A DNA stretch of 4,968 nucleotides from a virus. Lineage: Duplodnaviria > Heunggongvirae > Uroviricota > Caudoviricetes. Positions 691 through 1,185 of this stretch are shown here, one piece after another; the first letter of the stretch is position 1, and each line of letters starts with the position of its first letter. The DNA lies in the IMG/VR virus record IMGVR_UViG_2711768067_000002, positions 1 to 4,968 of that record; one strand, 5' to 3'. The translations under genes were made by a program, and so were the position numbers. The notes beneath the pieces are model-generated. The model had not been told where the DNA came from and made no database searches. It saw nothing but the letters and a program-made list of their open reading frames with translations.

Positions 691-1185
691 ATGTCTGATG
701 AAAAAGGAATAATAAGTAGGATTACAGATGCAGTTTCTGGTGCCGGAGGTGCTCTGATGAGTGCTGTTGGCGCAGTAAAGGAAATCCAGAAAATGCAAAT
801 AGACTACTCAGTAAAAGAAAAAACATACGAACTTGTCGATAAGCTCATGGATGCCCAACAGCAGCAAATGTCACTTAATGAGCTTTTGATGATTTCTAAG
901 GACAAGATTATTGAGCTTGAAGAAAAGATAAATCGAGCCTCTAAGTGGGAAGAGGAAAAGAAAAACTATGAGATGTATACACCTACTGTTGCTACGGTGG
1001 TTTATCGTCTCAAAAAATCGGCAAATACCGGTCAGCCAATGCACTATCTTTGCGCTCAATGCTATGAATCTTCTGTGAAATCCATACTTCAATACGAAGG
1101 ATTTGCACCACCTTCTAACCATAGGATGAGATGCCATAGGTGTAACGCCTCCTATCTGTTCCCTAAATCTGCATTTTCTAAATAA
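691..1185 (+). CDS. Hypothetical 164 aa rightward protein with C-terminal CxxC-x23-CxxC motif, in the locus position lambda uses for sieB
   Basis: ATG at 691 with GAGAG about 10 nt upstream (the ORF-track start at 682 is a GTG). Protein is hydrophilic with a Gly/Ala-rich segment ([16 protein letters not shown]), a charged probably helical middle, and CAQC...CHRC near the C-terminus. The stop (1183..1185) overlaps the 3' end of N (1178..1180) convergently. I cannot confirm or exclude identity with lambda SieB from memory. Confidence 0.6.

Follow-up and report, generated by a model that had tools for sequence, protein, structure and literature searches.

The window analysed here is a stretch of 4,968 nucleotides (positions 1 to 4,968 of the Caudoviricetes record IMGVR_UViG_2711768067_000002), which has the layout of a lambdoid immunity region and contains ral, the open reading frame studied here (termed rip1 on the grounds given below), N, pL/nutL, two further ORFs, cI, cro, cII and the start of O. 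The genes that matter for the present analysis are the following.

281-481, minus strand: ral, from the ORF list.
691-1185, plus strand: rip1 coding sequence, 164 aa plus TAA stop, with matches to HK446 Rip1, to proteins of phages ev099 and vB_EcoP-720R6 and to PHROG 1244.
1178-1501, minus strand: antitermination gene N, 107 aa, from the ORF list, convergent with rip1.
1929-2549 and 2546-3034, minus strand: two overlapping ORFs in place of rexB/rexA, between pL and cI.
3031-3744, minus strand: lambda-type cI, from the window map.

The sequence and the ORF list agree on a rightward reading frame of 164 codons from the ATG at 691 to the TAA at 1183-1185, as the sequence-only reading of this DNA had proposed. 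An alternative in-frame GTG at 682, 5' of this ATG, would yield a protein of 167 aa; the ATG at 691 is the start chosen in the HK446 annotation, in the RefSeq annotation and in the PDB construct. The stop codon of N (TAG, minus strand) occupies 1178-1180, so that both genes overlap convergently over the 8 nt from 1178 to 1185. This overlap had been noted beforehand and is found identically in the annotations of HK446 (4102-4596 vs 4589-4912) and of an E. coli prophage in RefSeq. The distance between the start of ral and the end of N is 696 bp in the window (482-1177) compared to 749 bp in lambda (34288-35036), a difference of exactly 53 bp, which agrees with the estimate of about 53 bp in the sequence-only reading. 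Alignments with lambda and P22 moreover place the ORF in the position of sieB, where it had been located earlier.

Over positions 78-4968 the same arrangement is present in 25 complete E. coli genomes at 99.2-99.7% identity. In strain fS25a, the only one of these 25 genomes that was inspected, it belongs to a lambda-like prophage adjoining ybhC and the ORF is annotated as 'hypothetical protein'. Positions 1-77 are unmatched in lambda and related prophages, all matches beginning at 78, and correspond to the end of an IS2-like element (IS3 family). The prophage may be defective because an insertion sequence lies in its pL operon, to the left of ral; this insertion would not prevent expression of rip1.

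The two overlapping ORFs at the rexB/rexA site are present in the 25 E. coli prophages as well. The 206-aa product matches PHROG 5820 and has a C-terminal hydrophobic stretch that is maybe a membrane segment, and the 162-aa product (144 aa with the RefSeq start) matches PHROG 5893. Neither of them received a Pfam, PADLOC or NCBIfam assignment. Phage mEp332 matches the window across the pair, with annotations as a T2SS GspM-containing protein and hypothetical proteins. The two ORFs may be an exclusion pair.

Identity of the encoded protein

The product of the ORF can be divided into the parts listed here.

703-792, plus strand: N-terminal Gly/Ala-rich amphipathic helix, residues ~5-34, from AlphaFold2, the hydrophobic moment and the review cited below.
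805-960, plus strand: long central helix, residues 39-90, from AlphaFold2, with pLDDT rising from ~56 to 84 along the helix.
967-1164, plus strand: C-terminal beta-rich Cys4 (zinc-ribbon-like) domain, residues 93-158, from AlphaFold2 and alignment.
1051-1053, 1060-1062, 1132-1134 and 1141-1143, plus strand: the four Cys codons, from the sequence.

The cysteines C121, C124, C148 and C151 form the motif CxxC-x23-CxxC (C121-x2-C124-x23-C148-x2-C151), which presumably binds a metal. This motif, the short Gly/Ala-rich segment (residues 14-29) and the largely hydrophilic character of the protein had all been read correctly from the letters. The GRAVY value is -0.50 compared to +0.04 for lambda SieB, and the best 19-residue Kyte-Doolittle window reaches 1.28 compared to 1.73. 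Within this hydrophilic protein, mean hydrophobicity peaks at residues 11-28, and the N-terminal helix is both the most hydrophobic and the most amphipathic stretch. AlphaFold2 places this helix at residues 7-34 with low confidence (pLDDT 40-56), and the hydrophobic moment of residues 5-24 is a modest 0.41-0.42, only about the 95th percentile of shuffled sequences. The helix at residues ~5-34 is presumed to be the membrane-inserting, pore-lining part. Most of the C-terminal Cys4 domain was modelled with a pLDDT of 83-89.

A phmmer search of the PDB with the ORF product gave one match, chain 9oox_L, 'ring interacting pore 1 (Rip1)' of phage HK446 (E = 1.4e-105). The alignment spans residues 3-164 of 164 and contains a sole difference, Y96 here compared to H96 in HK446, so that 163 of the 164 residues (99.4%) are shared with HK446 gp37. 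The AlphaFold2 model superposes on 9oox_L over 122 of 124 modelled residues, and the predicted N-terminal helix, long helix and C-terminal beta-rich domain match the Rip1-type fold. Proteins of phages ev099 and vB_EcoP-720R6 are 100% identical to the one encoded here, and PHROG 1244, a family of unknown function, is matched with E = 4e-53. Relatives at 45-92% identity occur in Citrobacter, Edwardsiella, Pantoea, Providencia, Serratia and Proteus, and relatives at 27-32% identity include HkaP of HK620 and proteins of about 30 Pseudomonas Mu-like phages (Casadabanvirus). A profile search against 1.84 billion cluster representatives retrieved 2966 family members at E <= 1e-3, nearly all of them 145-180 aa long and matched over their full length; when 96 diverse members are aligned, every column varies except those of the four cysteines. 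A chance reading frame can be dismissed, because the product belongs to a family of 2966 representatives and a near-identical protein has a solved structure. Scans of its product against Pfam, NCBIfam and PADLOC 2023 gave no significant match. Hits to PDE12-like_N, Zn_ribbon_4 (E = 0.087) and PDC-M53B (E = 0.019) were set aside as sub-threshold noise.

With high confidence we therefore identify the ORF at 691-1185 as rip1, a single-protein, prophage-encoded abortive-infection defence. The protein is not new: Rip1 has already been described and structurally solved in a form that differs at one residue. Tyrosine is the commoner state at that residue, being present in ev099, in vB_EcoP-720R6 and in the Edwardsiella homologue. 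Residue 96 starts the ring-contacting domain, and the exchange of Y96 for H96 might alter specificity.

In this prophage, rip1 is very probably a functional gene. It could conversely be a silent or inactive leftover in a decaying prophage, since the IS2-like end left of ral starts the window, the prophage may be grounded and the protein departs from the tested HK446 form at one residue (Y96). We consider this improbable: no damage is seen in the reading frame, the promoter, the Shine-Dalgarno sequence or any conserved residue, Y96 is the more common variant, and the allele is held at more than 99% identity in the 25 complete genomes. Defence genes, moreover, typically remain useful even in defective prophages.

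The sequence-only reading had left undecided whether the ORF is a diverged sieB or a different cargo in the same slot, and it is the second of these that holds. If the protein were a highly diverged SieB, sharing the ancestry and the membrane mechanism of lambda and P22 SieB, this would account for its position, its orientation, the upstream promoter block and its comparable length (164 aa compared to 184-192 aa). However, BLASTP revealed no similarity to SieB of lambda (E = 9.4) or of P22 (E = 0.93), and certainly not the high identity that a sieB gene would display. SieB is strongly hydrophobic and lacks the Cys4 motif, whereas the present protein is hydrophilic, carries the invariant cysteines, is devoid of SieB-like hydrophobic N-terminal membrane helices according to the Kyte-Doolittle values given above, and is nearly identical to Rip1, whose fold differs from that of SieB. 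What the ORF has in common with sieB, a rightward position behind the sieB promoter between ral and N, characterises the slot rather than the protein. A consensus scan of positions 400-1700 for promoters found none on the minus strand, and no evidence was obtained for an Esc antidote or a sas antisense RNA. We attach practically no credence to a common origin with SieB, an idea that these comparisons already refute. A zinc-ribbon regulator binding nucleic acid, for example one acting on N or pL expression, would fit the zinc-ribbon-like motif, the weak Zn_ribbon_4 match and the 8-nt overlap with N, but is dismissed as well, given that this match lies far under threshold (13 vs 30 bits), that the solved complex shows a protein on a terminase ring and not on nucleic acid, that the Pseudomonas Mu-like homologues occupy a quite different slot without a nearby N, and that lambda sieB directly abuts N too, so that close packing against N comes with the slot rather than with rip1.

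Promoter cassette and exchange of the cargo

Upstream of rip1, the following elements were delineated.

590-674, plus strand: conserved sieB-type promoter cassette shared with lambda, P22, HK446 and HK620, from alignment.
632-640 and 666-674, plus strand: CCCCTACAG direct repeats, with starts exactly 34 bp apart.
653-658, plus strand: -10 hexamer TAAAAT, aligned to TAAACT of P22.
676-682, plus strand: Shine-Dalgarno-like AAGAGAG, from the sequence, 8 nt 5' of the ATG at 691.
648-1202, no strand: segment differing from lambda (cargo swap), from the three-way alignment of the window, lambda and HK446.

In the upstream regions, a stretch of about 60 bp does not vary between lambda, P22, HK446, HK620 and the window. 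The P22 record (NC_002371) annotates the sieB promoter at L005:1691-1721 and a mapped RNA start at L005:1728; both align within the cassette of the window, the RNA start with position 665. This alignment leads us to infer that transcription of rip1 in the lysogen starts at the same promoter as that of sieB in lambda and P22. A simple sigma-70 consensus scan missed this promoter because its -35 region is poor. Another promoter-like site, at 686-713, was rejected, as it lies within the start of the ORF and chance alone would yield 2.5 such sites against the one found. The AAGAGAG at 676-682, which also directly follows the second repeat in Serratia prophage loci, is a plausible ribosome-binding site for rip1.

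The first copy of CCCCTACAG overlies the -35 region, and the second starts at the base immediately 3' of the position of the mapped P22 sieB RNA start. Pairs with the 34-bp spacing were found in 8 independent loci, each time ahead of a sieB or rip1-family gene: they precede sieB in lambda and P22, and rip1-family genes in HK446, HK620 and E. coli, Serratia and Pantoea prophages. Further coordinates of the pair are L001:1651/1685, L005:1695/1729, L009:3941/3975 and L011:3942/3976. The sequence between and beyond the repeats varies among loci, and the pair itself is conserved across prophages of E. coli, Salmonella, Serratia, Pantoea and Yersinia.

At the inferred 5' end of the rip1 mRNA, an inverted repeat (CTCTTAC-CCCTACA-GTAAGAG, 660-680) encloses the second repeat copy. 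This hairpin has a terminator-like score on both strands and is present in HK446 and HK620. A function as terminator was not retained, as the hairpin, compared by eye, is seemingly not conserved in the Serratia and Pantoea loci.

The distribution of the cassette was surveyed by a scan for the repeat pair in one genome per species, filtered by the CGAGAAA context; this filter removed many matches to the bare repeat pattern that were unrelated repeat arrays in other phyla. SieB-family cargo, in some cases very diverged, was found behind the cassette in Yersinia pekkanenii, Phytobacter, Proteus penneri, Morganella, Moellerella and a contig binned as Segatella copri, and Rip1/HkaP-family cargo in Yersinia nurmii and Pantoea piersonii. 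A pattern scan of viral contigs returned a single locus. About 20 further matches were 99.5% identical to lambda sieB and came from unrelated taxa, many on short contigs or contigs whose names indicate ~1x coverage. Such contigs with lambda sieB (99%) sit in species-representative assemblies of unrelated bacteria, among them Shewanella, Chromatium, Paenibacillus, Neobacillus, Oceanobacillus, Kitasatospora, Bradyrhizobium and Pseudomonas (loci L027, L031, L041, L042, L044, L045, L059, L063, L068, L072, L074, L075, L083, L085, L096 and L098), and most likely represent contamination of libraries or assemblies with lambda DNA.

The three-way alignment delimits the exchanged segment. Similarity to lambda stops after the CGAGAAA ending at 647 (...CCCCTACAGCGAGAAA) and resumes near 1203, in the last ~8 codons of N, and similarity to HK446 extends from window position 590 through the end of N to past 1300. 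All differences from lambda in the last ~8 N codons (1178-1202) are synonymous and leave the peptide KGKSIPLI unchanged, which puts the right-hand joint inside N. At the level of the aligned sequences, rip1 has thus entered a lambda-immunity prophage by replacing essentially only the sieB coding sequence (~648-1202), with a left-hand recombination joint within the common promoter block and a right-hand one within the 3' end of N. The Serratia and Pantoea prophage homologues occupy the same slot, rightward and convergent with N.

Judged from these comparisons, the sieB slot is occupied by either of two unrelated exclusion families, with a single conserved cassette in front. As a tentative suggestion, which we regard as possible but rather doubtful, the ~85-bp cassette could represent a transferable regulatory module by which an 'exclusion slot' is defined, its repeats binding a factor that adjusts or silences the resident defence, for instance while the prophage itself grows lytically (self-immunity). 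A literature search for defence hotspots in the sieB slot retrieved nothing specific, and the CCCCTACAG cassette common to sieB and rip1 may be the sole unreported aspect of this locus.

Proposed action of Rip1 and significance

Rip1 was published by Patel, McCarthy, Taylor et al. (2026, Nature 651:1060-1067) and is summarised in section 5 of a review (PMC13434031). According to that summary, Rip1 is a single-protein abortive defence without toxicity on its own, and infected cells that contain it round up, which suggests that the integrity of the inner membrane is lost. [quoted passage not shown] In the solved complex, as the review section describes it, an 11-mer ring of small terminase is enclosed by a Rip1 12-mer, and a meeting report (PMC12908700) independently mentions 12 Rip1 subunits capping 11 terminase subunits. 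The N-terminus is described there as an amphipathic helix, with the C-terminal half contacting the small-terminase ring, and the complex as making a pore that releases dye from liposomes (PMC13434031). The same section states that Rip1 homologues are widespread in Proteobacteria and chiefly borne by prophages. The mechanism is known for the HK446 protein and the Pseudomonas homologues rather than for this exact allele, and our account of it draws on the review, the meeting report and the PDB title. Queries of the PDB with lambda Nu1, with the HK446/HK97-type small terminase and with the small terminase of a near-identical resident prophage did not retrieve 9OOX; by sequence, the small terminase in that entry is none of these three.

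By analogy, the following course of events can be proposed for the prophage studied here. In the lysogen, rip1 would be transcribed rightward, opposing the repressed pL operon, from the sieB-type promoter with its -10 hexamer TAAAAT at 653-658 and a start near 665. A superinfecting phage would produce its ring-shaped packaging proteins late in infection, and Rip1 monomers would then assemble around such a ring, formed by the small terminase in the case of E. coli phages and by the portal in Pseudomonas phages. The C-terminal Cys4 domain would touch the ring and the N-terminal amphipathic helices would converge into a pore in the inner membrane. The cell would in this way be permeabilised before progeny are complete, and spread of the phage would be stopped. 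The earlier guess of an exclusion or defence function expressed from its own promoter in a lysogen thus pointed in the right direction.

The finding opens no new question about the Rip1 protein. It does bear on annotation: RefSeq, phage records and PHROGs still label the product as hypothetical, and PADLOC 2023, Pfam and NCBIfam miss Rip1, and therefore many lambdoid prophages of E. coli and its relatives carry a pore-forming defence that is unannotated. The window furthermore offers a clean case of gene movement, in which the coding sequence alone was exchanged and a lambda-immunity prophage traded SieB for Rip1. A cassette common to two unrelated exclusion families could also mark further cargo in the sieB slot.

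Comparison with known systems

The closest known system is that of HK446 (gp37; PDB 9OOX), in which rip1 is likewise convergent with a lambda-type N, overlaps it by 8 nt and is preceded by the same upstream sequence, from window position 590 on. HK446 differs in having H96 instead of Y96 and in being an HK97-like phage with a different repressor, whereas the prophage of the window is lambda-like, has lambda immunity and carries ral and a non-rex cargo pair beside cI.

Homologues in Pseudomonas aeruginosa Casadabanvirus phages (D3112 orf25, DMS3, JBD30, MP38 ORF25 and LPB1 ORF25) resemble the present Rip1 in architecture, length and the four cysteines, and in being prophage-encoded and transcribed against the surrounding operon. 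They are unlike it in sequence, with only 28-32% identity, and in their trigger, which is the portal and not the small terminase according to the review section cited above (PMC13434031). In LPB1, the one Pseudomonas annotation inspected, the homologue (BLASTP E = 1e-20) lies on the minus strand between a 'DNA binding protein' gene, presumably the small terminase, and the large terminase gene; the other Pseudomonas matches are on the minus strand at similar coordinates. This slot at the terminase genes is where the review (PMC13434031) locates Rip1, and it also holds tab, an independently transcribed defence gene (PMC10884400). The Tab/anti-Tab system of phage JBD26 is like the Pseudomonas Rip1 homologues in being a small prophage defence in the same slot, on the minus strand and with its own promoter, and Tab, like Rip1, acts late and on virion morphogenesis proteins (PMC10884400). 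Conversely, Tab is an unrelated protein of 83 aa that blocks tail assembly via the tape measure protein, forms no pore and has a dedicated antidote gene (PMC10884400).

Closer to lambda, HkaP of HK620 (also in HK629 and HK630), annotated as 'putative superinfection exclusion protein', belongs to the same family (tblastn E = 5e-6, 27% identity, Cys4 kept). The gene hkaP resembles rip1 in its promoter cassette, its rightward orientation and its place to the left of N, and differs in being much diverged and in that hkaQ of HK620 intervenes between hkaP and N. A literature search on hkaP found no functional study; the one paper retrieved describes a biosensor and makes use of flanking intergenic regions from HK620.

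Superinfection exclusion B (SieB) of lambda and P22 is reportedly the subject of work by Ranade and Poteete in 1993. The sieB gene is like rip1 in its slot, its promoter block and the homology at the mapped start, and the role of SieB is of the same kind as that of Rip1, a prophage-expressed abortive exclusion of other phages. The two proteins are nevertheless unrelated in sequence and fold: SieB possesses hydrophobic helices at its N-terminus but no Cys4 motif, and in P22 it is accompanied by the in-frame Esc antidote and the sas antisense RNA.
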